Source: an uncultured virus (IMG/VR IMGVR_UViG_3300032288_003839) (taxonomy: Duplodnaviria; Heunggongvirae; Uroviricota; Caudoviricetes). From it: DNA of 64,000 bases. The stretch is from the IMG/VR virus record IMGVR_UViG_3300032288_003839. The stretch is one strand, 5' to 3'. The position numbers and the translations under genes are program-made. Below the pieces are notes generated by a model. That model saw only the letters and a list, made by a program, of their open reading frames with translations. It had not been told where the DNA came from and made no database searches. Positions within the stretch are counted from its first letter, which is position 1. Each line of letters starts with the position of its first letter. This document shows, one piece after another, positions 1,340 through 43,738 of the stretch.

Positions 1340-4279
1340 TTATCCATCTATAATTCTTAGACCGGTTTTAATAGTCCAAGTTCCTGATGTTACATTAGAT
1401 TGTAATGTAACATTACCGGTAATAATAGAAACATTAAATTCTATACCAGTTGTAGACCCATTCAAATCGGGAGTAGAAGTATCAGTAAACTGAACATTTG
1501 TGCCATCCCAAACAGCCATTACAGTACCACTTCTTCTTTGATTAGTAACACCTAAAACATTATAATCAAAATAACAACTATTTCCAGCAGAAGCAGTAAA
1601 TGATATTAATGATGATGTTCCTGTTGTAATACCAGTTGATTGACTGGTATTCATAATAAGTGGACCAACCATAGTCACTTTACCATCACCTTGAACCTTA
1701 AATGTATCTGTACCTGAACCATTTTGAACAGTTAAAACATTATCAGTATCAGAGACAGAACCTCTACGGATATTAACAGCACCTAAAGTAGAATTTGTTA
1801 ATATTTCTGGATTAGAAGCAGAGTTATCATAAGCACCTTGTAATGTAGTAGTAGAAACACCACCAGCAGATCCACCTAACAATTCACCAAACTTAGATAC
1901 AGCAGTAAATTGAACATCATTTGTATTATTTAAATCAGAAGCACCATTCTTAATAGTAATGATTCCAATAAGAATACCATTATCTCTGTTATTGGTATAT
2001 TCTTGGAAAGATTCTGCTAATATACCAGTAACTGCCTTTGATAATGTTGTATAAGTTTGTTGACCATATTGCACACGAACAACACCTGTAGGGAATAAGA
2101 AAACTCTTTGGTTAGTATATTGAGCACCACCAACAGAAGAAACGGTACCACCAATATCATAATTTGTAGCATCAATAAATGTAGTATTTGAGAACGAACC
2201 ACCTGTTTGAGTTCTATATTGAAAAGTAACCGGATTCTGTCCACCAATAGAAACACTATCTGGATTTAATTGGTCATTTACCCAATTAATACCATTACCC
2301 CAAAGTGAACCACCAGACATTTGAAATGATAAGTTAGTACCATTAGGTCTTATTGCAATCCCATCATTAATCAACTTAATAGGTGTCCACAGGTCACGAA
2401 GTGCTGAATATGGAGAAACATCAAAGTCTGGTGTATTATTAATATTCTGAATGATTGTTTTATCAGGATGCACTACTTTACCTAAGTAAATATTTTGTCT
2501 TCTTTCTTGAGGAGTAGGAAAAGTAGGTTGTAATATAAGAGAGGAAGTCGGACTTAATAAAACATAAGTAGCTGGATCCGAATTCAAATAAGGAGTAGAT
2601 AAACCGGTAGCACCAGCAAATTGAACATTAACAACATCTGGAGCGGTTGAGTAAGTATAAGTATTATAGACAATCCAACCTTTAGCAGCAGAAACACTGA
2701 ATGTTGTATTAGATATTTTTGTAATACCTGGACTATATTCATAAACTCCAGTTGAAATAACATTACCTTCTAAGATATTTCTTTCACTATTAGTTATAGA
2801 TAAATTTAAATCTTCATTATTAATATTAACATATAATCTACCTGTTGTAATTCCATTATCCACAACATAACCTATCTCATTTCTTCTTGAACTAAATGTT
2901 AGACCAGTAGGTAGTATATAACCACCAGGAGTAGTATCTGATAAATATAATAAATCACCAACTGAGTAAGAACTTAAATTAATATCTGTTAATAAACCAT
3001 TTGTTAAAACTAAACCCACACCACCATTTGGAATGACATCAGCTGCTAAACCAACCACTCTATTATCACCACTATGTGTAGATATAGCTAAAGAAACATT
3101 AGGTAAACCACCAGAAGCACTTAATATCTTAACTGCTGACCCTCTAGCAATTGCGAAACCACTTATGTTATTAACTCTTAAATATAATTGCTGACCAACT
3201 CTTACTACAACACTTTGATTGGTATCTGGGTAATAAGAAAGAGAACTCTCATTGTGATCAAAGTAAACTCTACCCGACTGAGTAGCAGGAACTGAATATG
3301 AACCAAAGTCCATGTAGTTAACACCTGCAATAACACCACCATTAACAGAAAATGTAAATCCGTCATATGTTAATCCAGAGTTAGCTAATGCTGAATTGGT
3401 AGAAGATCCTGTGGCTGTTAATATTCTATAGTTAGCCGGATTAATAATAGTATTAAATCCAGTACCGGATGTTCCACTTGTACCATTAGTTCCATCAGTA
3501 CCATTTACACCTGATAATCCACTTGTACCACTTGATCCACTTGTACCACTTGAACCAGATGTACCAGATGATCCAGATGTACCAGATGATCCAGATGTAC
3601 CAGATGATCCAGATGTACCAGATGATCCAGATGTACCACTTGATCCACTTGTACCACTTGATCCACTTGTACCACTTGATCCACTTGTACCACTTGATCC
3701 AGATGTACCAGAAGATCCAGATGATCCAGATGATCCACTTGTACCAGAAGATCCACTAGATCCACTTGTACCTGATGATCCGGAAGTACCAGAAGATCCA
3801 GATGTACCCGATGATCCACTAGATCCACTTGTACCAGAAGATCCAGATGTACCCGATGATCCACTAGATCCACTTGTACCTGATGATCCACTAGATCCAC
3901 TTGTACCTGATGATCCACTAGATCCACTTGTACCTGATGATCCAGATGTACCAGAAGATCCGGAAGTACCTGATGATCCACTTGTTCCTGATGTTCCCGA
4001 TGTTCCAGGTATAGAGGCTGTCCAAGTGGCAACACCATTAGAATCACTGATTAAAATATAATTAGGACCTTGAGTACCATCTTGTAATTGAAAAGCACCA
4101 GATTGAGTTGAATATATATGAAATTTTGTATTAGGAGAAGCAGTTCCAATACCTAATCTGTTATTAGTAAAATCCCAATGCAATTGATTAAAATTCTCAC
4201 TTACAGTGCTATTAGTTCCTAAGAATAAAATAGATCCTTGTGTGCCTCCTCTAATTTGTTTGATATTCAGTTGACTCAT
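1340..4279 (-). CDS. Tail-fibre/virion protein with a GSS/GTS repeat segment
   Basis: 979 aa; NRLGIGTASP fibre-type motif; about 185 aa of G-X-S repeats; Gly/Ser/Thr-rich beta-type body. Confidence 0.75.
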   Translation of the reverse strand: MSQLNIKQIRGGTQGSILFLGTNSTVSENFNQLHWDFTNNRLGIGTASPNTKFHIYSTQSGAFQLQDGTQGPNYILISDSNGVATWTASIPGTSGTSGTSGSSGTSGSSGTSGSSGTSGSSGSSGTSGSSGSSGTSGSSGSSGTSGSSGTSGSSGSSGTSGSSGTSGSSGTSGSSGSSGTSGSSGSSGSSGTSGSSGTSGSSGTSGSSGTSGSSGTSGSSGTSGSSGTSGSSGTSGSSGTSGSSGTSGSSGTSGLSGVNGTDGTNGTSGTSGTGFNTIINPANYRILTATGSSTNSALANSGLTYDGFTFSVNGGVIAGVNYMDFGSYSVPATQSGRVYFDHNESSLSYYPDTNQSVVVRVGQQLYLRVNNISGFAIARGSAVKILSASGGLPNVSLAISTHSGDNRVVGLAADVIPNGGVGLVLTNGLLTDINLSSYSVGDLLYLSDTTPGGYILPTGLTFSSRRNEIGYVVDNGITTGRLYVNINNEDLNLSITNSERNILEGNVISTGVYEYSPGITKISNTTFSVSAAKGWIVYNTYTYSTAPDVVNVQFAGATGLSTPYLNSDPATYVLLSPTSSLILQPTFPTPQERRQNIYLGKVVHPDKTIIQNINNTPDFDVSPYSALRDLWTPIKLINDGIAIRPNGTNLSFQMSGGSLWGNGINWVNDQLNPDSVSIGGQNPVTFQYRTQTGGSFSNTTFIDATNYDIGGTVSSVGGAQYTNQRVFLFPTGVVRVQYGQQTYTTLSKAVTGILAESFQEYTNNRDNGILIGIITIKNGASDLNNTNDVQFTAVSKFGELLGGSAGGVSTTTLQGAYDNSASNPEILTNSTLGAVNIRRGSVSDTDNVLTVQNGSGTDTFKVQGDGKVTMVGPLIMNTSQSTGITTGTSSLISFTASAGNSCYFDYNVLGVTNQRRSGTVMAVWDGTNVQFTDTSTPDLNGSTTGIEFNVSIITGNVTLQSNVTSGTWTIKTGLRIIDG
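3460..4010. repeat. Second GSS/GTS-coding tandem repeat
   Basis: Same 9-nt unit family as at 1-890. Confidence 0.95.
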
Positions 4280-19570: not shown

Positions 19571-20725
19571 ATGATACATAATTTTAATAAGTTTATTAAT
19601 GAAGAATTGAGACTGGATAAGTTAGATGATAAATCTCTTAATCAGTTAAAGCTAAATTTAATGGATAGATTATCAGAATACAGAACTTATATTCTAAATA
19701 ATATAGTCTATAACATGTCTACTAATAAAGTAGAATATAAAGACTTTGAAAATGTAGATATCACAACAATTTTAAGAGAACTTAAAAATGAATTTACAGA
19801 TGAGGTTGTTCAAGATATGAACATAGAAACATTTTTAAGAAAGTTAAATCAAATATTAGATCTTAAAAAGAGAAATACAAAGCGTAGAGTAAGAGAAGAG
19901 TTTGATGAATATTATAATTCAATTGAACAAAGAATTTCTAAAATCTCAAGAGGAGAAGCTGAAGAACATTTTGATGCTATTGAAGGAGAAGATTCTTTAA
20001 TTACAAGAAAACAATATGAAACTGAAAAGTTTGGACTACAAGTTGAATTATTAAAACTACAAGAATGGGTAGTTAAGAATAAAAAGAAAGTAGCTATTGT
20101 ATTTGAAGGAAGAGATGCTGCTGGTAAAGGATCAACTATTAAAAGATTTACAGAATATTTAAATCCAAGAGGATTTAAGATTGTTGCACTTGGATTACCA
20201 ACTGATGAAGAAAAGAAAAACTGGTTTGCTAGATATGAAAAACACATGCCTCAACCAGGTGAAATAGTTTTCTTTGACCGTTCTTGGTATAATAGAGCTG
20301 TTGTGGAACCAGCTATGGGTTACTGCACAGAAGAACAATATAATGATTTTATGGAGAATGTTCTAGATTGGGAAGAACACTTAATGAATGATGAAGATAT
20401 TATTTTAATTAAGTTTTGGTTCTCTATTACTAAAGAAAAACAAGCTTTAAGATTTGATTTAAGAAAATCTAGTCCATTAAAGTATTGGAAGTTTTCTCCA
20501 AATGATGCCAAAGTAATTGACAAATGGGATATTATTGGAAAATATAAAAACCAAATGTTTAGTAAAACTGCCAATTCAAATTCACCTTGGGTTATAGTTA
20601 ATTCAAATGATAAAAAGATAGGTAGATTAAATGCTATTAGATATGTTTTATCACAAATTGGTTATGATGGTAAAAATGAAGAAGCTGGAAACTATTATCC
20701 AGAGGTAATAAATGTAATAAAGTAA
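19571..20725 (+). CDS. ppk2: Polyphosphate kinase 2 with N-terminal extension
   Basis: FEGRDAAGKGSTIKR; FDRSWYNRAVVEP; KFWFSI; WKFSPND. Confidence 0.92.
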   Translation: MIHNFNKFINEELRLDKLDDKSLNQLKLNLMDRLSEYRTYILNNIVYNMSTNKVEYKDFENVDITTILRELKNEFTDEVVQDMNIETFLRKLNQILDLKKRNTKRRVREEFDEYYNSIEQRISKISRGEAEEHFDAIEGEDSLITRKQYETEKFGLQVELLKLQEWVVKNKKKVAIVFEGRDAAGKGSTIKRFTEYLNPRGFKIVALGLPTDEEKKNWFARYEKHMPQPGEIVFFDRSWYNRAVVEPAMGYCTEEQYNDFMENVLDWEEHLMNDEDIILIKFWFSITKEKQALRFDLRKSSPLKYWKFSPNDAKVIDKWDIIGKYKNQMFSKTANSNSPWVIVNSNDKKIGRLNAIRYVLSQIGYDGKNEEAGNYYPEVINVIK

Positions 20726-24499: not shown

Positions 24500-24847
24500 A
24501 TGAATTTGTCCTTTATATTTATAAGCATAATACCAATATCAATAGTTGTCTATCTATTTGTTAAAAAGTATCTAAATAACAGAAAGAGAGAAGAACAATT
24601 AGATATAATAGACCACTGGTCTGAATTTAGTCAAACACTAGTAAACTGGGGAGAAGAAATATCAGATATACATGTAAAACATGAGTATATACACTTTTGT
24701 GCATCTGAAATGTCAAAAAAATTTAGTTATAATAATGAACACCGTGAAAATAAAATAAGACAAGAAGTGATTGATAAGTTTATCAATTATATACCTTCAC
24801 TTAGACAAGAAGTAAGAGAAGAAAAAATAAACAAAATATTAAAATAA
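24500..24847 (+). CDS. Membrane-anchored hypothetical protein
   Basis: ATG 24500 lies 3 nt after TATATTTG; N-terminal TM; C-terminal REEKINKILK. Confidence 0.6.
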   Translation: MNLSFIFISIIPISIVVYLFVKKYLNNRKREEQLDIIDHWSEFSQTLVNWGEEISDIHVKHEYIHFCASEMSKKFSYNNEHRENKIRQEVIDKFINYIPSLRQEVREEKINKILK

Positions 24848-25740
24848 TGGAAAATAACTATCCTATCGGTGCCCTTTGTGGAAGATTTCAAGTTCATGAA
24901 TTGCACCAAGCACATCGTTACATCATTGACCAAGTAGTTGATAACCACAAAAAAGTTATTTTATTCCTTGGTGTTACTAAAACAGCAGGTACTAAAAAGA
25001 ATCCTCTTGATTTTGAAACAAGAAAAAGAATGATTCAAAAACACTACCCTGATATTACAATTATATCACTACCAGACTTCGGTGATGATAAAAGATGGTC
25101 ACAAGAAATGGATAAAAGAATCAGGGAGATATATCCAGTTGGTGATGTTTTAATGTATGGTGGTAGAGATTCATTTATTCCTTATTATAAAAACGGTGGT
25201 GGTCAATTTCATTGTAAGGAATTAGAACAACACACCTTTGTTTCAGGAACTGAGGTTAGAAAAATTGTTTCTGAGCAAGTAAAAGATTCATCAGACTTTA
25301 GAGCTGGTGTTATTTATCAATCATATAATCAATTTCCTAAAGTACATCCTTGTGTAGATATTGTTCCATTTAATGAAGATGGTACTAAAATTCTTCTAGC
25401 TAGAAAACCTAATGAAGACGGATGGAGATTTATTGGTGGATTTGCTAATCCAAATGACCAATCATATGAAATGACTGCTAAAAGAAAACTTAGAGAAGAA
25501 GCAGGACCAATTGAAGTTGGTGATGTTAGATATGTTACATCACTTAAAGTAGATGATTGGAGATACCGTTCAGAAGAAGATAAAATACTTACAATACTAT
25601 TTAAGTGTAAATATGTATTTGGATCCATAGAACCATCACAAGAAATATCAGAGTTAAAATGGTTTGATTTAAAATTATTTAATAAAAATGATATGGTTAT
25701 TGAACACAAAGAATTAATTGAAATATTAAAAAATATATGA
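24847..25740 (+). CDS. nadM: Bifunctional NMN adenylyltransferase / Nudix (NadM-Nudix, NatV-like)
   Basis: GRFQ..LHQAH, KNPLDFETR and SGTEVR in the N-domain; GGF...LREEAG Nudix C-domain. Confidence 0.88.
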   Translation: MENNYPIGALCGRFQVHELHQAHRYIIDQVVDNHKKVILFLGVTKTAGTKKNPLDFETRKRMIQKHYPDITIISLPDFGDDKRWSQEMDKRIREIYPVGDVLMYGGRDSFIPYYKNGGGQFHCKELEQHTFVSGTEVRKIVSEQVKDSSDFRAGVIYQSYNQFPKVHPCVDIVPFNEDGTKILLARKPNEDGWRFIGGFANPNDQSYEMTAKRKLREEAGPIEVGDVRYVTSLKVDDWRYRSEEDKILTILFKCKYVFGSIEPSQEISELKWFDLKLFNKNDMVIEHKELIEILKNI

Positions 25741-26819
25741 ATATAAACACATCCCCTGTTACATACTCTTCCATTGTTCAAATTGGAGAGATGGCTACAA
25801 AATTAGAAAAAGAAACCAGTGACAAATATCTAAAACTTCATAGAGGAGTTATGGATGTCACAACAATTGAATTAAATACAATCTCTCAAAAGATTGATTT
25901 TAATAGTAAAAAAATACAACAATATGGTGGAAATGATGGCGACACACAACTAGTGGAAACTATAAAAGATAAGTTCCATCTTAAAGACCATTATGTAATG
26001 ACTGTTCCAGGTGGGATGGCTGCTCTTGATTTAGTAATAAACTCACTATCAGATAAAACATTTTGGATTCCTAAATACCATTGGGGTTCTTGGAATAAAA
26101 TTCTCACCATTCACGGTAAAGAAATCAAAACATTTAATGACTTTGATATCAGAAATGTTGAAGTTGGTGAGGGTGTTGTAATGTTATGTTATCCTTCAAA
26201 TCCCACAGGATATGCTCCTAAATTTGAAGACTTAAAAGCATTTGCTGATGTTTGTAGAGAAAGAGGGCAAACTCTTATCTTAGACTTGCCTTACTACTAT
26301 CTATTCAATGATATGTCTAATAACATATATGAACTTTATTCAGATAATGTAATAATTATCTCATCATTTTCTAAATCAATTGGACTATCCGGATTAAGAA
26401 TTGGATACATTGGGACTAAAAATAAAGAGTTATATGACACTATGAAGATTAGATCTTTATATAAGTATAATTCTATATCAACCGTACCACAAAGTATCAT
26501 AAATGACCTATTAACAACAAATGAGGGTATTGAATCACTTAATGATTATAAGAAAGTAACGAAGGATCACATAACAAAAAATATTCAATACTTATCTGAG
26601 AATGGATTACTATTTGATGAATATACAGATATTCCAGTAGGACCATTTGCAATTGTTAATAAAAACTTTGATGAATTATTGAAATATAAGATAACAAGTG
26701 TTCCCCTAAATAAATTCACTTTTAATAATAAGGAAGAAAAGTTAAAAGATGTATCAAGAATTTCAGTGGCGGTAGACCACAATTTATTTGTAGAATATTT
26801 CAATAGAATTGAAAAATAG
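25737..26819 (+). CDS. PLP-dependent aminotransferase class I/II
   Basis: PSNPTG; ILDLPY; SFSKSIGLSGLRIGY containing the PLP lysine. Confidence 0.85.
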   Translation: MNINTSPVTYSSIVQIGEMATKLEKETSDKYLKLHRGVMDVTTIELNTISQKIDFNSKKIQQYGGNDGDTQLVETIKDKFHLKDHYVMTVPGGMAALDLVINSLSDKTFWIPKYHWGSWNKILTIHGKEIKTFNDFDIRNVEVGEGVVMLCYPSNPTGYAPKFEDLKAFADVCRERGQTLILDLPYYYLFNDMSNNIYELYSDNVIIISSFSKSIGLSGLRIGYIGTKNKELYDTMKIRSLYKYNSISTVPQSIINDLLTTNEGIESLNDYKKVTKDHITKNIQYLSENGLLFDEYTDIPVGPFAIVNKNFDELLKYKITSVPLNKFTFNNKEEKLKDVSRISVAVDHNLFVEYFNRIEK

Positions 26820-26856
26820 TCCGTATATTTGTATATTAAAATAAAAAATAAATAAT

Positions 26857-28287
26857 ATGTTTAACGACAACATTTTAACACTGACTGACAGTTACAAATC
26901 CACACACTGGAAGCAGTATCCGAAAGGAACGACAAAAGTTTACTCTTATCTTGAATCAAGAGGTGGTAAATTTGATAACACAATGTTTTATGGTTTACAA
27001 TACTTCATTAAAAACTACTTAACTGGTAGAGTTGTTACTGAAGAAAAAATTACAAAAGCAAAAAAGTTCTGGGACGCACATCTTGGTCACGGCTACTTTA
27101 ATGAAGAAGGATGGCGACATATACTAATCGCACACAACGGACACCTACCCGTTAGGATTAAAGCAGTTCCAGAAGGAACAGTTGTTAAAACAGGAAATGT
27201 TTTAGTTACAGTTGAAAACACTGACCCAGAAGTTCCTTGGTTAACTAACTTTTTAGAAAGTATTTTACTCCAAGTATGGTACCCAATTACAGTTGGTACT
27301 CTTTCAAGAGAAGTTAAGAAAAATCTTATCAACTATCTTAAAAAAACAACCTCTTACAACCCAGAAGAAATTAGTGGCGTAGTGGCTTTCATGTTACATG
27401 ATTTCGGTTTCCGTGGTGTAAGTTCTGTTGAATCATCTGGTTTAGGTGGGTCTGCTCACATCATCAACTTTATGGGAACTGATACAGTACCGGCTATTTT
27501 ATTCGCTCAAGAATATTATAACACTCAAAACACACTGGCCTTCTCAATTCCAGCATCTGAACACTCTACAATCACTTCTTGGGGAGAACCATTTGAAGTT
27601 AAAGCAATGGAAAATATGTTAGACTCATATCCTACCGGTTTAGTGGCTTGTGTATCTGACTCATTTGATATTATCAGAGCTTGTAGAGATTATTGGGGAA
27701 CTACTTTAAGAGATAAGATTTTATCTCGTGATGGTCGTTTAGTAATCCGTCCTGATAGTGGAGATCCAGTTCAAACACTTAAACAAATCTTCCATATCTT
27801 GTGGGATAAGTTTGGTGGAACAATCAATGATAAAGGATTCAAAGTTCTTGACTCTCATATTAGAGTAATTCAAGGTGATGGTGTAAACTTTGAATCAATT
27901 TCAGATATCTGTAATATGATGATTGAAGAAGGATTCTCAGTTGAGAATATCGCATTTGGTATGGGTGGTGCTCTTTTACAAAAAGTAGATAGAGATACTC
28001 AGAAATTCGCCTTCAAATGTTCTTCTATTACTATTAATGGTGAAGAAGCTGAAGTCCGTAAAAATCCAATTGAGATTAATGAGAAAGGTGAAAGAGTACA
28101 ATCTTTCAAAAAGTCAAAAGCTGGTCGTTTGAAGTTAGTAAATGGTCAAACCGTTGAACACTCACATGATGAAGTTGGCGATGAATTAGTTGAGGTATTC
28201 TTCAATGGTAAAATTACTAAAGAATGGTCATTTGAAGAGGTTAGAGAAAGAGCTCAAGTGAATATTCAAATTGAAGAAATGGTCTAA
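26857..28287 (+). CDS. nadV: Nicotinamide phosphoribosyltransferase
   Basis: TDSYK.TH..QYP; LHDFGFRG; PASEHS; RPDSGDP; IQGDG; FGMGG.LLQ..RDT. Confidence 0.95.
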   Translation: MFNDNILTLTDSYKSTHWKQYPKGTTKVYSYLESRGGKFDNTMFYGLQYFIKNYLTGRVVTEEKITKAKKFWDAHLGHGYFNEEGWRHILIAHNGHLPVRIKAVPEGTVVKTGNVLVTVENTDPEVPWLTNFLESILLQVWYPITVGTLSREVKKNLINYLKKTTSYNPEEISGVVAFMLHDFGFRGVSSVESSGLGGSAHIINFMGTDTVPAILFAQEYYNTQNTLAFSIPASEHSTITSWGEPFEVKAMENMLDSYPTGLVACVSDSFDIIRACRDYWGTTLRDKILSRDGRLVIRPDSGDPVQTLKQIFHILWDKFGGTINDKGFKVLDSHIRVIQGDGVNFESISDICNMMIEEGFSVENIAFGMGGALLQKVDRDTQKFAFKCSSITINGEEAEVRKNPIEINEKGERVQSFKKSKAGRLKLVNGQTVEHSHDEVGDELVEVFFNGKITKEWSFEEVRERAQVNIQIEEMV

Positions 28288-28290
28288 ACT

Positions 28291-28322
28291 AAAAACCCTC
28301 TGAAAAATCAGAGGGTTTTTTT
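28291..28322. terminator. Bidirectional intrinsic terminator
   Basis: aaaaaccctctga-aaaa-tcagagggttttt between convergent genes. Confidence 0.85.
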
Positions 28323-31348: not shown

Positions 31349-31861
31349 ATGAAAGAAAAAAGAAAACACAGAATAAACGGAGAAGTCCGCTTTCCTCAAG
31401 TTAGAGTTATTGGTGACGGTGAACCAAAATTAATGAGTTCATATGACGCTTTTCAATTAGCACAATCCCAAAATAAAGATCTCATTTTGATAAATGAGAA
31501 TCAAACAATACCTATTGTTAAAATTGAAGAGTATAATAAGTTTCTTTATACCTTAGAAAAATCTGAGAAGGAAAAGAAAAAGAACTCATCTAAGTCAGTT
31601 ACTAAAGAAATTCAATTAAGTCCCGAAATATCTGACCATGACCTCGGAACCAAATCTAGAAAAAGTAAAGAGTTTTTAGAAGATGGTAATAAGGTTAAAG
31701 TTGTCCTACAACTAAAAGGCAGACAGAAGGCAACTCCTGAAAGAGGTCAAATAGTTATGCTTAAATTTGTTACATTAGTTGAAGAACTTGGTGTCGCTGA
31801 AAGTCTTCCTAAATTAGAAGGAAGTAAATGGCATATGATTATAAAACCAAAGAAGAAGTAG
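31349..31861 (+). CDS. infC: Translation initiation factor IF-3
   Basis: HRINGEVRFPQVRVI; KEIQLSPEISDHDL.TK; FLEDGNKVKV.L..KGRQ. Confidence 0.92.
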   Translation: MKEKRKHRINGEVRFPQVRVIGDGEPKLMSSYDAFQLAQSQNKDLILINENQTIPIVKIEEYNKFLYTLEKSEKEKKKNSSKSVTKEIQLSPEISDHDLGTKSRKSKEFLEDGNKVKVVLQLKGRQKATPERGQIVMLKFVTLVEELGVAESLPKLEGSKWHMIIKPKKK

Positions 31862-32624
31862 ATTTTATAAAAGTCCAATAGTAGTCTTTTGATTCTCCCT
31901 TTTCAAAATATATCATAATCATCCTATGTGTTTTATTGGTAAATAAAATAACTTCATTTGTGTTGTTAAATTCAAAGACCTCTCCAGTCTTTTTAGAAAT
32001 AGCTTTTATATACTTATATTTAATCTTCTTCTCACTTAACTTTTTTATTACATCATCTCTTACCTCTTTTTTTCCTTTATTCCACGGATCTCTTCCTATA
32101 TTTTTTAATCTAACCTTTTCAGAAACATCTGGATTGTGCATTGGATTATTCAATTTAAGTCTATCTGATATTTTTTTCTTAGTGGATTCTTTTAATTTTT
32201 TCCCCCAATTTGGATGTCTATCTCCTTTAAGTGACATCTTATATCTTGATTTTTTAGAATGAACTAATCCAGTTACTCCCTCTCCACCATTAACTAAGTT
32301 AACAAGAGGTCCTTTACTATCAATTCTTTTACCTATCTTATTAATTAATAGTATTTCTTTATCAAATGACTCTTGTTCAGTTAGATTTTCATATAATTTA
32401 AAAACAATAGGATCATATCCTGATTTTATAATTTTATTTATCCTATTTGACATAAAGTTTTTTTTCTTTAATTTATAATCTTTCATGTGAATAGTATCTC
32501 TACTGTTATGTCCCTTTTCTATATAGAAAGGCTCATATAAAAAAGAAAAATTCAAACCATCATAATAATATGAACCTTTCTTTGATGGGTCCATATAAAC
32601 ATATACATAAAATTTATTTTCCAT
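31839..32624 (-). mobile_element. Free-standing GIY-YIG homing endonuclease with NUMOD3-like repeats
   Basis: FYVYVY...PFYIEKG..R; E..LI..IG....GPLVN...GGEG; HSKKSRYKMS, HPNWGKKLKESTKKKIS and PWNKGK motifs. Confidence 0.8.
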
Positions 32625-32720: not shown

Positions 32721-34188
32721 ATGACAAAACAAGAAAAAATAGAAAAAATAGAGTCATTAAAAAAAAGAGCTAGTGAGCTGAAGAAGGAAGTTGATTATTT
32801 CAACGCTCTTCAGCTTGCTGGATAACCCCCTCTGATTTATCAGAGGGGGTAAATGAGCACTTAAATTAGTACTTAATGGTTCTTATGGAGCATTCGCTAC
32901 GTCCTACTTCATATTATATAATAACCATGTAGCAGGAACAATCACTGCTCAAGGCCGTGACCTTACAAAAACAATGGATAAGGTTAATGAAGACTATTGG
33001 TATAACCAATGGCAGAATGACCACGAGCTTCATTATAAAATGGGTATTAAGAACATAACACCTATTTCAAAAGATGAACCAGTTTCTATTTATGCTGACA
33101 CCGATTCATTATTTGTTTCATTCAAACCAGCAGTAGACCATTGTGATTGGTTGAATTTAGTATTCAATGATGAATTTCTTAATTCAATGGATAAAAAGTT
33201 TATTATACTTTCTAAAGAACTTCCAAAGTTCAATAATACTAACTGTGTAGGAACTGCACATAATATTAAAGAGTTTACCGACTTATTGAGTACAGAACAT
33301 GAATTGGTTTTAATATGTGGTAACTTTGTTAAAGATAGAGAGTTAGTAAAGATGATTAAGTCTGGTTCTGTAAAGAATGAGATAAAATGGAACTGGTCTA
33401 ATGAAATAGATTTCATACAAGGATTAGACCATTATAGATATGGTGGTTACTTTAAAAAGTGTTTAGAGGATTATGCTGGATCATTTGGTGTGGAAAACAA
33501 AGAAGACTTTGAGTTAGAAAGAATATCAGAATCTATTATCAATATTGCTAAAAAGAAATACATTCAACATATTTTATTTGAAGATGGTATTCCGTATGAT
33601 AGATTGAGTTATATTTATCCTAAAGGTGTAGAACTTGTTAGGTCATCTACTCCAGCATTTGCTAGAGATAAAATTGTAGGAATTGTTAAATATCTATTTA
33701 CACATCCAGATACTTTTAATATCAAAGACTTACTAAAATTAGTAAAAGGTTTAAGAAAAGAATTTGAATTGGCTGATATAGATGATATTTGTATGCAATC
33801 TTCTGTTTCTAATTATGAAACAAAAGTTCTTAATGACAAATCATTGCCTTTAGGATTTATAAGTGGTGCTCACTTCGCGGTTAAGTCAGCTGCACATCAC
33901 AACTTTCTTTTATCAAAAAGTAAAGAGTATCAACAAAAATATGAATTCATTAAATCAGGTCACAAGATTAAATACTATTGTTGTAAAGATAAATCAGTAA
34001 CTGATATGTTTGCTTATACACGCGGCTCTTTTCCAGTAGAGTTTGCTCCTCCTATAGACTATGATGAACAGTTCGCTAAATCTATCTTGTCTCCTATCAA
34101 TTCAATTATTGAACCATTAGGAATGCCTGAGATTACTAAAAGGTTGTCAGTTGTGATGGATATTTTTGGGGGTAAAGGAGGTTTCTAA
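32721..34188 (+). CDS. Family B DNA polymerase, C-terminal subunit (fingers-palm-thumb), interrupted by a 40-nt insert; predicted 475 aa if the insert is skipped
   Basis: 32721-32819 encodes MTKQ...YFNALQLA. 32860 onward (+1 frame) encodes LKLVLNGSYGAF...ITAQGR...YADTDS...KKKY...KGVELVRSSTP. No exonuclease domain or motif A. Confidence 0.85.
32820..32859 (+). other. 40-nt non-coding insert with a perfect hairpin inside polymerase motif B (candidate ribosomal bypass element)
   Basis: GGA TAA, then accccctctga-ttta-tcagagggggt, then AAATGA GCA; both relevant frames are blocked by stops. Confidence 0.7.
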
Positions 34189-34991
34189 TCCTCTTTATAA
34201 ACAAAATTCTTATCAGGTATTAAATAGTAATTAACACCATTCTCATCTAATTGAGTTTTAATATCTTTTCCTTTGAATATCCAATTACCTAATTTCTTAT
34301 TTGTATCAGATATTAAAACTAAATAATGTGTTTTGATTTCTGTGAAATATCCACTTATATAAACTTTATAAAAATCATCTTCTTTAGTAATTGAAGAAAG
34401 TGTTTTTGTTTGTATAGTATAAGTACTTCCTTTATAATTAAAAGTACCATCAATACCAGCAATATCAACTTTATGAGAAGATGGTTTATCAATTGATATA
34501 TCTGTTTTAAGTATTTGAGATGCAAATTTAGAGAAGAATGTATTTGCTATTTCTTCTTGTGATTGACCTTTATCTGAAGCTCCTTCTAAAATTTTATAGA
34601 TTCTTTCAAACCACTTACCACCAGGTTCAAATAGTTTGAACTTATTAGTCTCGATCCAATCAATCATACCATCAGGTGTTGAGAATGTAGGTCTACCATT
34701 ATCTATTTCATTAGCAATTCTAATCATCTCCCAAAGTATTGCAATATTCTTTTGGGCTTTTGTTAATAACTCAGCTCTAACTTCTCTTCCTTTATGAATT
34801 AGAATTTCATTACCTCTGAAATTACCATAGATTTCTTTTAATATTCTTCTAATAGCTAACTCTTTTTTCTCTGCTTTTTCTTCAGTGAATAAGATAGGTT
34901 TACCAGCTATAAACAACTTAACTGGTTTATATGAAGCTTTATATTTATCATTATAAGCTTCTTTTATAAAGTTTGAGTAATTTTTAATCAT
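34185..34991 (-). CDS. Hypothetical protein with possible PD-(D/E)xK-like C-domain
   Basis: DIAGIDG...IQTK; N-terminus MIKNYSNFIKE. Confidence 0.55.
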   Translation of the reverse strand: MIKNYSNFIKEAYNDKYKASYKPVKLFIAGKPILFTEEKAEKKELAIRRILKEIYGNFRGNEILIHKGREVRAELLTKAQKNIAILWEMIRIANEIDNGRPTFSTPDGMIDWIETNKFKLFEPGGKWFERIYKILEGASDKGQSQEEIANTFFSKFASQILKTDISIDKPSSHKVDIAGIDGTFNYKGSTYTIQTKTLSSITKEDDFYKVYISGYFTEIKTHYLVLISDTNKKLGNWIFKGKDIKTQLDENGVNYYLIPDKNFVYKED

Positions 34992-37209: not shown

Positions 37210-37683
37210 ATGACATTAATAAGAATACTAAAATTTCTATATACATCAGAACATTCACACTTCTTATCAGTAGATAAGGACTTTTACTCCAGGTGGAAAT
37301 TGATTATCAAAGGAGCAGTAGCACTAAATAAAAACTATAAATCATGTGAGATTTATAGAAAGAAATACAAAATGATGGAAGATTTTGTAGTTATTGGGCT
37401 TAAATACAATGGTAAAAATGTTAAAAGAAGAACTAGCGGATACGCTAAAGAATTTATAGAACAACACAAAGATGCAAAATGTCTTTACTGTGAAACTAAA
37501 CTAAATGATAGAAATGCTACAGCAGATCATATAGTTCCGATATCTGACGGTGGTAATAACTGTCAAGTTAACTTAATAGTTTGTTGTAAAGATTGTAATA
37601 ATGAAAGAGGTAATATAGATTTTAAAACTTATATTTCAATGAAAAATAAGAAATATAAAAATATAAATAAATTGTTTATTTAA
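37210..37683 (+). CDS. HNH endonuclease
   Basis: CLYC...TADHIVP.S.GG.N...NLIVCC..CN..RG. Confidence 0.88.
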   Translation: MTLIRILKFLYTSEHSHFLSVDKDFYSRWKLIIKGAVALNKNYKSCEIYRKKYKMMEDFVVIGLKYNGKNVKRRTSGYAKEFIEQHKDAKCLYCETKLNDRNATADHIVPISDGGNNCQVNLIVCCKDCNNERGNIDFKTYISMKNKKYKNINKLFI

Positions 37684-43075: not shown

Positions 43076-43738
43076 ATGAACAAAGATTTTAGAAAATTTG
43101 CAAATGATAAAATGGTAAGCACTACTTACCTTAATGACTATTTTAGAAAACTAAATATAAGAAATAACACAACCCAATTACTTGAAAGCAATGGAATGCC
43201 AGTAGATATATTCTCAAAGCTTTTAGATGATAGAATAATATTTCTATGCACTGAAATAGACTCTGATATTTGTAATATCATCAAAGCTCAGTTAATGTAT
43301 CTCGAAACTCAAAATGATGAGGATATTAAAATTTATATTGATTCACCAGGTGGATCTGTTTATAGTGGATTAGGTCTATTAGATGTTATGGATTATGTTA
43401 GTCCTGACATCATTACAGTCAATACGGGACTAGCTGCATCAATGGCTGCTGTTATACTATGTTCAGGTTCAAAAGGTAAAAGAAGAGCTCTTAAAAGAAG
43501 TAGAACAATGATTCACCAACCAATGAGTTATGGTGGATATGTTCAACAAGCATCAGATATGGAAATTGAAGCTAAAGAAATGAATTCTATTAAGAAAGAA
43601 CTTTATGAAATCATTTCAGAAAGAACTGGTCAAAACTATGATAGAGTTCACAAAGATGGTGATAGAGATTATTGGATGAGCGCACAAGACGCTAAGAAAT
43701 ATGGTATGATAGATGATATCATATTAAAGAGAAAGTAA
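43076..43738 (+). CDS. clpP: ClpP protease proteolytic subunit
   Basis: DIFSKLLDDRIIFL; YIDSPGGSV; GLAASMA; MIHQP; DRDYWMSA..AKKYGMID. Confidence 0.95.
   Translation: MNKDFRKFANDKMVSTTYLNDYFRKLNIRNNTTQLLESNGMPVDIFSKLLDDRIIFLCTEIDSDICNIIKAQLMYLETQNDEDIKIYIDSPGGSVYSGLGLLDVMDYVSPDIITVNTGLAASMAAVILCSGSKGKRRALKRSRTMIHQPMSYGGYVQQASDMEIEAKEMNSIKKELYEIISERTGQNYDRVHKDGDRDYWMSAQDAKKYGMIDDIILKRK

Follow-up and report, generated by a model that had tools for sequence, protein, structure and literature searches.

A candidate ribosome-hop cassette in motif B of a split family-B DNA polymerase gene of huge phages

Layout of the polymerase locus

We analysed a 64,000-nt stretch of DNA from an uncultured virus (IMG/VR record IMGVR_UViG_3300032288_003839; hereafter the window, 29.8% G+C), in which the C-terminal half gene of a split family-B DNA polymerase is broken by a coding gap of 40 nt. 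Sequence comparisons with related genes suggest that these 40 nt are probably a translational bypass cassette in the genome of a huge phage. An ATG at 32721 opens a 34-codon open reading frame (ORF), MTKQEKIEKIESLKKRASELKKEVDYFNALQLAG, which ends in GCT (32817-19), GGA (32820-22) and the stop codon TAA (32823-25). On the far side of the gap, a TGA (32854-56) is followed by GCA (32857-59) and then by LKLVLNGSYGAF...YADTDS..., up to the stop codon at 34186-88. A hairpin occupies most of the gap, and the spacer between it and the GCA reads TAAA, then TGA.

The sequences KLVLNGSYG and YADTDS, which we take to be motifs B and C of a family-B DNA polymerase, are legible directly in the downstream piece. 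Both lie inside a Pfam PF00136 match (1e-15, profile positions 156-237 and a second stretch), which identifies this C-terminal piece as a family-B polymerase. No in-frame start codon is present from the TGA at 32854 to motif B, and the next in-frame ATG (32974) is past that motif. Gene callers accordingly give a 404-aa polymerase without motif B and a 34-aa orphan ORF, whereas joining the two coding parts across the gap gives a product of 33 + 442 = 475 aa. The closest records, LR756502 and LR745206, share 76.6% amino-acid identity with the window over the polymerase piece and belong to uncultured huge phages of 634-642 kb. The positions reported for this locus in an initial annotation, made from the letters of the window alone, all hold, from the first ATG through GCT, GGA, TAA, the hairpin, TGA and GCA to the ATG past motif B. 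The features are as follows, with the sites of take-off and landing as proposed below.

32721..32819 (+): coding part 1, Met to take-off Ala, 33 codons; amino acids kept in all relatives
32770..32821 (+): 5′ stem-loop, 15 bp, from folding and covariation; its 3′ arm lies over the take-off codon
32817..32819 (+): GCT (Ala33), proposed for take-off; the final codon shared collinearly with insert-less relatives before the gap, and matched by GCA 40 nt downstream
32820..32856 (+): untranslated part of the coding gap, 37 bases: GGA, TAA, hairpin, A/U-rich spacer, and TGA in the landing frame
32825..32850 (+): hairpin within the gap, with an 11-bp stem, a TTTA loop and five basal G-C pairs
32857..32859 (+): proposed landing codon GCA (Ala), which would be re-paired by the peptidyl-tRNA and not decoded again
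32860..34188 (+): coding part 2, 442 codons and stop, encoding the remainder of motif B (LKLVLNGSYG) together with motif C (YADTDS) and the thumb; PF00136

The perfect 11-bp hairpin that the initial annotation had described at 32825-32850 is present as claimed, and the pairing it had proposed between UGCU at the take-off side and AGCA at the landing side is possible in the sequence. Of the 41 perfect hairpins of ≥8 bp that the window contains, this is the sole GC-rich one. Its sequence has no other copy there, giving a single-locus match on both strands (it is palindromic), with 0 matches expected from shuffles. For the surrounding stretch (32740-32875) the folding energy is -51.3 kcal/mol (z -7.05), a stability that none of 200 shuffles matched. 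Elsewhere in the window, at 28291-28320, a hairpin of 13 bp that resembles a terminator, with A and T runs on its flanks, has the core CCCTCTGA / TCAGAGGG in common with the gap hairpin; this common core could mark the gap hairpin's origin, or be due to chance.

Two simple explanations of the locus were rejected. The gap hairpin is not an intrinsic terminator: it has no T-run on its 3′ side, and a terminator scan makes no call there. An alternative genetic code is excluded in that 40 nt is not a multiple of 3, several TGA codons stand in frame through the gap, and all three stop codons end genes in the window (TAA 51, TAG 5, TGA 3). We found no tRNA genes in the window.

Homologous gaps at six codons of motif B

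A scan of IMG/VR yielded 70 loci which, with the window and two GenBank records, made up a set of 73 sequences. Two of these (L018 and L033) end at the site, leaving 71 classifiable genes (68 from IMG/VR, two from the GenBank phage records and that of the window). Of these, 46 have a gap of 36-48 nt and 25 have none; homologous gaps are thus present in 45 of the 68 classifiable viral contigs.

The two closest GenBank records (L001 and L002) read QLALKLVLNGSYG uninterrupted. Their gene is contiguous and begins M(N/T)..., 33 codons ahead of ..QLALKLVLNGSYGAF, and this unbroken reading defines the insert of the window as exactly 40 nt, flanked by a repeated Ala codon. The initial annotation had predicted a contiguous QLALK for insert-less homologues, and both records contain it. 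Alignment with the relatives also recovered the same insert in two independent assemblies (L003 and L004). The 37 inner gap bases are identical in the window, L003 and L004, although 111 of 432 downstream codons in L003 and 110 of 432 in L004 differ from those of the window. An identical gap despite approximately 25% downstream codon divergence rules out an assembly accident; read from sequence, such identity across three divergent assemblies shows constraint or very recent transfer.

The gaps are placed after six different residues of the motif B sequence A-L-K-L-V-L-N-G-S-Y-G. Leu is the most frequent site (23 rows), followed by Tyr (10), Ala (6), Gly (4), Val (2) and Ser (1). Gap lengths of 36, 38, 39, 40, 41, 42, 43, 44, 46 and 48 nt occur, representing all three classes modulo 3. 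The gap of L030 differs from those of L031 and L032 by a single G in the G-run of the hairpin 3′ arm (42 versus 41 nt), which reflects either a freely varying gap length or a homopolymer sequencing error. On a tree of the downstream protein, the gap has been gained or lost at least 13 times, at least 6 of them on well-supported branches, with 24 changes of site. L004 (Ala-site gap) and L005 (Tyr-site gap) do not differ in the columns kept for this tree.

Selection on the interrupted gene and division of the enzyme

We next asked whether the interrupted gene shows signs of decay. Between the window and L003, coding part 1 has 4 synonymous and 0 non-synonymous codon differences, and coding part 2 has 95 synonymous and 16 non-synonymous ones. 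Both coding parts are under purifying selection. The initial annotation had held that relaxed selection here, coupled with an intact second copy elsewhere, would count against a bypass; for selection we find the opposite, with synonymous changes far outnumbering non-synonymous ones on both sides.

Domain scans of the window's proteins revealed no other polymerase domain. Furthermore, two related records with an estimated completeness of 98% (483,262 and 464,605 bases) hold no second copy: each has a single C-terminal polymerase gene, which is gap-bearing (at the Leu site in one and the Tyr site in the other), and one N-terminal gene with an exonuclease domain and PF00136 positions 17-151, located ~96 kb and ~130 kb away, respectively. 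PF00136 positions 17-151 and 156-452 thus fall on separate genes in these relatives. Judging by the domain layout, the enzyme is split ahead of motif B throughout the clade, gap or no gap, and, from the near-complete relatives, motifs B and C are encoded nowhere but in the interrupted gene.

These observations bear on the reading that the gene is simply broken, as a pseudogene or through an inactivating insertion, or that the gap is an assembly artefact. We consider this extremely unlikely given the identical 40 nt in two other assemblies, the homologous gaps in most viral contigs, purifying selection on both sides, structures that covary (see below) and a single copy in near-complete relatives.

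Some polymerase genes in this set also carry an intein at motif C (..VHN/S junction; L030-L032, L035, L046, L049 and L069-L071). In L030 and L046 the frame ends inside the intein and a new ORF begins with the C-terminal intein part, a layout that, to judge from the sequence, resembles a split intein or one whose endonuclease has an ORF of its own.

Gap anatomy and matched codons

We compared 31 distinct gap sequences. They follow a common order: the last collinear codon, usually 5-6 nt with a stop codon, a hairpin, an A+U spacer and the resumption codon. In most gaps the stop is the second codon past the conserved sequence (NNN TAA/TAG/TGA, as in the window), and in L020, L025, L027 and L035 it is the first. 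Four gap types have no stop ahead of the hairpin (L005, L028, L055 and L065), and L069-72 have one in the loop. A hairpin of 9-16 bp, with a folding energy of -16.8 to -31.5 kcal/mol, is predicted in all 31 gaps, and the stems covary. C5:G5 forms the base in nearly every case (92.6% of cells paired), and the inner pairs vary freely among gaps. The spacer is 78% A+U and measures 0-10 nt by fold, or 4-10 nt where the fold leaves the stem unextended.

The landing and take-off codons share bases 1 and 2 in 24 of the 31 distinct gaps, including 22 of 22 outside the Tyr site, where a chance match is expected approximately once in 16. The matched pairs are GCT>GCA/GCT, CTT or CTC>CTA, GTT>GTA/GTT, TCT>TCA and GGT>GGT; at the Tyr site, the take-off codon is TAT or TAC and the landing codon is TAA in 2 distinct gaps. 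This codon repeat is always in codon phase with the third base free, as re-pairing of a retained peptidyl-tRNA predicts. Neither a splice site nor a target-site duplication would lead one to expect this. The window itself has the matched codons of gene 60-type cassettes, in GCT at 32817-19 and GCA at 32857-59. In L065, nearly the same hairpin and spacer as in the window are found with the whole unit shifted one codon on, and CTT/CTA takes the place of GCT/GCA. The hop from Ala to Ala put forward in the initial annotation (GCT to GCA, 475 aa) is favoured, over a GGA take-off and over splicing, by these in-register matched codons, which recur at five further codons of motif B.

A take-off one codon later, from GGA with UAA in the A site, appears improbable by comparison. 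Here, peptidyl-tRNA-Gly would land non-cognately on UGA or GCA and add one or two residues, yielding QLAGALK.. or QLAGLK... The GGA-then-stop order is that of gene 60, according to the accessible part of bioRxiv 10.1101/2022.08.31.505936, and most gaps do place their stop second after the conserved sequence. GGA is also a common codon that should decode readily, and the Tyr-site landings indicate that an exact match is sometimes dispensable. However, the codon before the stop varies (GGA, CGA, AGA, TTT, GTT, TGT, GCT or GTC) and is never matched at the landing side, whereas the codon one earlier matches in all gaps outside the Tyr site. In 5 of the 31 distinct gaps the stop directly follows the matched codon (L020, L025, L027 and L035; the window's own relatives excluded). 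Finally, the extra motif B residue that such a hop would insert occurs in 0 of the 25 gap-less homologues.

Removal of the 40 nt from the RNA, by an endonuclease and a ligase acting on the hairpin, would instead leave a contiguous message for translation. Exact removal would mend the frame in every gap, whatever its length, and homing endonucleases usually accompany introns or inteins, the latter being present at motif C of relatives. The gaps are, however, far below the size of a self-splicing intron, and their folds are plain hairpins that lack bulge-helix-bulge geometry. No known RNA family reaches its gathering score at the gap in Rfam, where the best matches are microRNA models, which score 14-19 bits although their gathering scores are 55-97. 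Neither an intron core nor a fold of the group I, group II or bulge-helix-bulge type is recognisable. Splicing would also leave unexplained the codon-phase repeat with its free third base, the stops just past the 5′ junction and a 5′ stem-loop whose end falls on the take-off codon. RNA-level excision is thus an unlikely source of the intact protein.

Alternatively, the upstream part could be a mini-ORF that ends at TAA, with the downstream part made by re-initiation, so that the enzyme would have an additional split. The enzyme is already encoded in N- and C-terminal genes, and an ATG lies within the TAAATGA spacer of many gaps. That ATG is out of frame, however, and a TGA stop stands immediately ahead of the landing codon. 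The landing codons (GCA, GCT, CTA, GTA, TCA and GGT) are not start codons, and the first in-frame ATG of the window, at 32974, comes too late to retain motif B. Such splits would also cut the motif B helix in six different places. Together, these points make re-initiation very unlikely.

A covarying stem-loop upstream of the take-off codon

Upstream of the gap, arms at 32770-32784 and 32807-32821 pair over 15 bp, of which 3 are G-U (-27 kcal/mol, z -5.4), and enclose an inner 5-bp hairpin (32790-32794 with 32800-32804). The 3′ arm includes the take-off codon and the two bases following it. We compared the folding of the last 62 nt before the gap among the relatives. In genes with Ala- or Leu-site gaps, this stretch folds at -15.4 to -30.6 kcal/mol (z -3.8 to -7.9), compared with -2.2 to -12.8 kcal/mol for the equivalent stretch of gap-less genes (z +0.8 to -3.3). 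Tyr-site genes have z near 0 (+1.4 to -1.9).

Covariation is consistent with these folds. Across 19 gap-bearing sequences (alignment A1), 85% of helix cells are paired, and both sides have changed in 7 of 14 pairs. When the two helices were scored together as a whole, none of 500 A1 shuffles scored as high, and controls in which the structure was slid along the alignment gave 39-52% pairing versus 87% unslid. The matching columns of 18 gap-less sequences (alignment A2) are 46% paired, against a shuffle mean of 45.1%. The alignment, whose columns are gap-free, was built on the conserved protein and is therefore not fitted to the structure.

The arms are rich in minority codons, whose shares of their own amino acid are 0.01 for CTG, 0.14 for CAG, 0.18 for CTT, 0.21 for GAG and 0.25 for AAG. 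L005, which has its gap at the Tyr site and no 5′ stem, differs from the window in 106 downstream codons (111 in L003). Upstream, it differs in 20 of 29 codons, whereas L003 differs in 4. This contrast indicates that stem and gap travel as one unit.

Homing-endonuclease genes beside the polymerase gene

A gene for a free-standing homing endonuclease lies directly upstream of the polymerase gene in the window and is divergent from it:

31839..32624 (-): free-standing GIY-YIG + NUMOD3 homing-endonuclease gene; Pfam PF22945 (5.7e-09) and PF07460 (5.3e-05)

Relatives can have either a GIY-YIG or a DUF7487/HNH-like endonuclease gene at this position. L003 and L004, whose gap is identical, have a different gene there from that of the window. 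Its matches are to DUF7487 and to PHROG families that bear the name 'homing endonuclease', and a C-terminal motif read by eye appears HNH-like. L005 has no endonuclease gene there. To extend this comparison, we scanned 54 upstream ORFs with Pfam and 14 proteins with PHROGs, 11 of the latter being ORFs upstream of the polymerase gene. Duplicate upstream ORFs were assigned by identical coordinates, and L008 was left out as incomplete, giving 24 gap-less rows. An endonuclease gene is found upstream in 27 of 46 gap-bearing rows and in 3 of 24 gap-less rows (L042-44).

In the window, a second free-standing HNH endonuclease gene (37210-37683, +; PF14279 and PF01844) lies ~3 kb downstream of the polymerase gene.

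Proposed mechanism of bypass

Together, the matched codons, the conserved gap anatomy and the 5′ stem-loop make programmed translational bypass from GCT to GCA, giving the 475-aa protein, the likely reading of this locus. In the proposed sequence of events, the ribosome would read 33 codons and stall with peptidyl-tRNA-Ala on GCU 32817-19 as the five basal G-C pairs of the gap hairpin (the C5:G5 clamp) meet the mouth of the mRNA channel. As given in the accessible part of PMC7282821, this channel holds 11 nt after the first P-site base, and stem-loops at +11/+12 block A-site tRNA binding. Codon and anticodon would then release, and the ribosome would slide across GGA, UAA and the hairpin. Re-forming behind it, the 15-bp 5′ stem-loop would bury the take-off codon and favour forward movement; such a role has been proposed for the pairing of exiting mRNA in gene 60 bypass in the portion available of bioRxiv 10.1101/2024.12.09.627546. 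The tRNA would re-pair at GCA 32857-59, which sits in an unstructured A/U-rich stretch without another GC dinucleotide. Decoding would restart at CUU to give one protein with QLALKLVLNGSYG intact and the junction peptide ..EVDYFNALQLALK... The UAA past the take-off codon and the UGA ahead of the landing codon would catch ribosomes that fail to hop.

Several observations weigh against this proposal. First, 7 of 9 distinct gaps at the Tyr site land on AAC, AGC, GAC or CAA with no match in bases 1 and 2, and the matched-codon rule is therefore not universal; these gaps are also without a 5′ stem-loop. Second, the GGA that follows the take-off codon in the window is common (25.6 per 1000), and is neither a stop nor a hungry codon. 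Third, the stem of the gap hairpin begins at +9/+10 from the P-site codon, whereas the published effect is at +11/+12, which makes the analogy with A-site blocking a loose one. Fourth, a Shine-Dalgarno-like landing aid is unlikely because Shine-Dalgarno-like motifs are nearly absent: a 4-mer of this kind occurs within 20 nt of the start in 2 of 60 window genes, against 9.7% of random 20-mers. A Shine-Dalgarno role for GAGGGGG, which the initial annotation had noted ahead of the landing codon, is accordingly doubtful; its GGGGG stops 7 nt short of GCA and belongs to the hairpin, as its 3′ arm. Finally, the link between gaps and upstream endonuclease genes is not significant when kinship is allowed for (6 independent pairs, sign test, median p 0.25). 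The cassette probably spreads with the neighbouring homing endonuclease and shields the gene from it, in the way described for mobA and gene 60.

The near-absence of Shine-Dalgarno-like motifs points to a translation system of the Bacteroidota type in the host, as far as sequence can indicate. The unmatched Tyr-site landings come from L012-L014, L019, L024, L034 and L064. In four of these (L014, L019, L024 and L034) the hairpin is extended to begin directly past the take-off codon and includes the stop. From their sequences, the Tyr-site gaps look like a second mechanistic form. Elsewhere, some relatives (L048 and L049) have the rare codon CGA after the take-off codon.

Other genes in the window

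A gene for translation initiation factor IF-3 (PF05198 and PF00707; 31349-31861, +) lies just upstream of the endonuclease and polymerase genes; in relatives, too, an IF-3 gene usually precedes the polymerase gene (e.g. L005, L009, L015, L045 and L053). On the other side, a 268-aa ORF (34185-34991, -), unmatched in Pfam and PHROG, runs convergently towards the polymerase gene, the two stops overlapping at 34185-88. Farther away are a nicotinamide adenine dinucleotide (NAD)-salvage cluster (24847-28287 and 19571-20725), comprising a cytidylyltransferase-like and NUDIX protein, an aminotransferase and a nicotinamide phosphoribosyltransferase, with a PPK2 polyphosphate kinase nearby. The window also encodes ClpP (43076-43738) and two collagen-repeat proteins (2-1207 and 1340-4279).

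Comparison with known bypassing systems

To our knowledge, bypassing has been demonstrated at the bench for one phage gene family, that of T4 gene 60, since 1988; beyond phage T4 gene 60, the published cases known to us are confined to some yeast mitochondria. Our full-text literature searches found no description of bypass in a polymerase gene or in huge phages. A 2022 survey of gene 60 homologues in Myoviridae topoisomerase genes, by Manning & Atkins (bioRxiv 10.1101/2022.08.31.505936), places mobA/gene 60 homologues exclusively in the gene for the large topoisomerase II subunit (Topo2L) and calls the cassette unique; in the part of that survey available, the word 'polymerase' occurs 0 times. 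Likewise, the accessible text of the 'moraphage' paper (PMC12619734) contains none of the words 'split', 'intein', 'frameshift' or 'interrupted'. We also scanned viral contigs with patterns for such elements, which were narrow: the stricter pattern found polB at 2 of 2 loci and the looser one at 7 of 22, the other 15 being unrelated contexts.

By its anatomy, the polB cassette is analogous, not homologous, to the gene 39/mobA/gene 60 cassette of T4. In both, an essential replication gene is split, and a short untranslatable gap interrupts its downstream piece some dozens of codons from the start; an early stop within the gap is followed by a stable hairpin and an A/U-rich 3′ part. Both have a stem-loop 5′ of the site of take-off and a neighbouring free-standing homing endonuclease, whose family is exchangeable (GIY-YIG in the window, DUF7487/HNH-like in L003). 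Matched codons, the A/U-rich 3′ gap and endonuclease linkage are all features of gene 60 cassettes in the accessible part of the survey (bioRxiv 10.1101/2022.08.31.505936), and the patchy, recent gain and loss seen here resembles what is given there for the mobA/gene 60 element.

The differences are equally clear. The host gene is polB rather than Topo2L, with no sequence similarity seen between the cassettes; the gap measures 36-48 nt rather than 50, and insertions fall at six codons rather than the two of the gene 60 family. In T4 gene 60 the stem starts from the A-site codon, whereas that of the window starts at 32825, 5-6 nt past the take-off codon; only Tyr-site variants, such as L014 and L024, begin their hairpin as gene 60 does. 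The window has a sense codon before the stop, unlike T4 gene 60. The 5′ stem-loop is conserved and covarying here, but not conserved among gene 60 clades, as described in the available part of bioRxiv 10.1101/2022.08.31.505936. T4 gene 60 has a mini Shine-Dalgarno ~6 nt 5′ of its landing site, and this phage shows no sign of using Shine-Dalgarno sequences. Unlike in T4, the split of the gene is not due to the cassette, because gap-less relatives are split too. Finally, T4 gene 60 bypassing is established at the bench, and bypassing of the polB gap is predicted from sequence.

The mitochondrial byp elements of the eukaryote Magnusiomyces capitatus offer a second comparison. According to the portion available of bioRxiv 10.1101/2022.08.31.505936, they too are GC-rich hairpin inserts in an AT-rich genome, skipped between matched codons, with an A/U-rich 3′ part, no Shine-Dalgarno sequence, and tolerance of wobble and larger deviations. 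As far as that portion describes them, byp elements are organellar and occur in many copies in many genes. The polB cassette, by contrast, was found as one copy per genome, in a single gene and linked to an endonuclease, and the 64 kb of the window hold one such hairpin.

The division of the enzyme itself recalls the gp43A/gp43B DNA polymerases, in which the protein is also divided just ahead of motif B into two separately encoded pieces. Petrov and Karam are said to have described these in some T4-related phages, with the two genes reportedly adjacent and without a coding gap. In the relatives studied here, the pieces are ~96-130 kb apart and a gap is present.

On balance, we favour the view that these gaps represent a second, independently evolved family of ribosome-hop cassettes, non-homologous to gene 60. 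In huge phages whose translation is of the Bacteroidota type and free of Shine-Dalgarno sequences, this family would move between no fewer than six codons of the best-conserved motif of the polymerase. Two mechanistic forms would exist: in one, the 5′ stem-loop covaries, the hairpin stands at +9/+10 and the landing codon is matched; in the other, the hairpin comes directly past the take-off codon and the landing codon has no match. On this view, bypassing would be a general, evolvable means for homing endonucleases to mask their own target sites, and dozens of natural variants would be available for reading the minimal rules of hopping. The 31 natural gap variants at six codons offer a test bed for the roles of the 5′ stem, hairpin spacing, stop codon, codon match and Shine-Dalgarno absence. 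As with gene 60, bypassing would once more be tied to homing-endonuclease traffic, and a non-homologous family in another essential gene would mean that ribosome hopping is no one-off.

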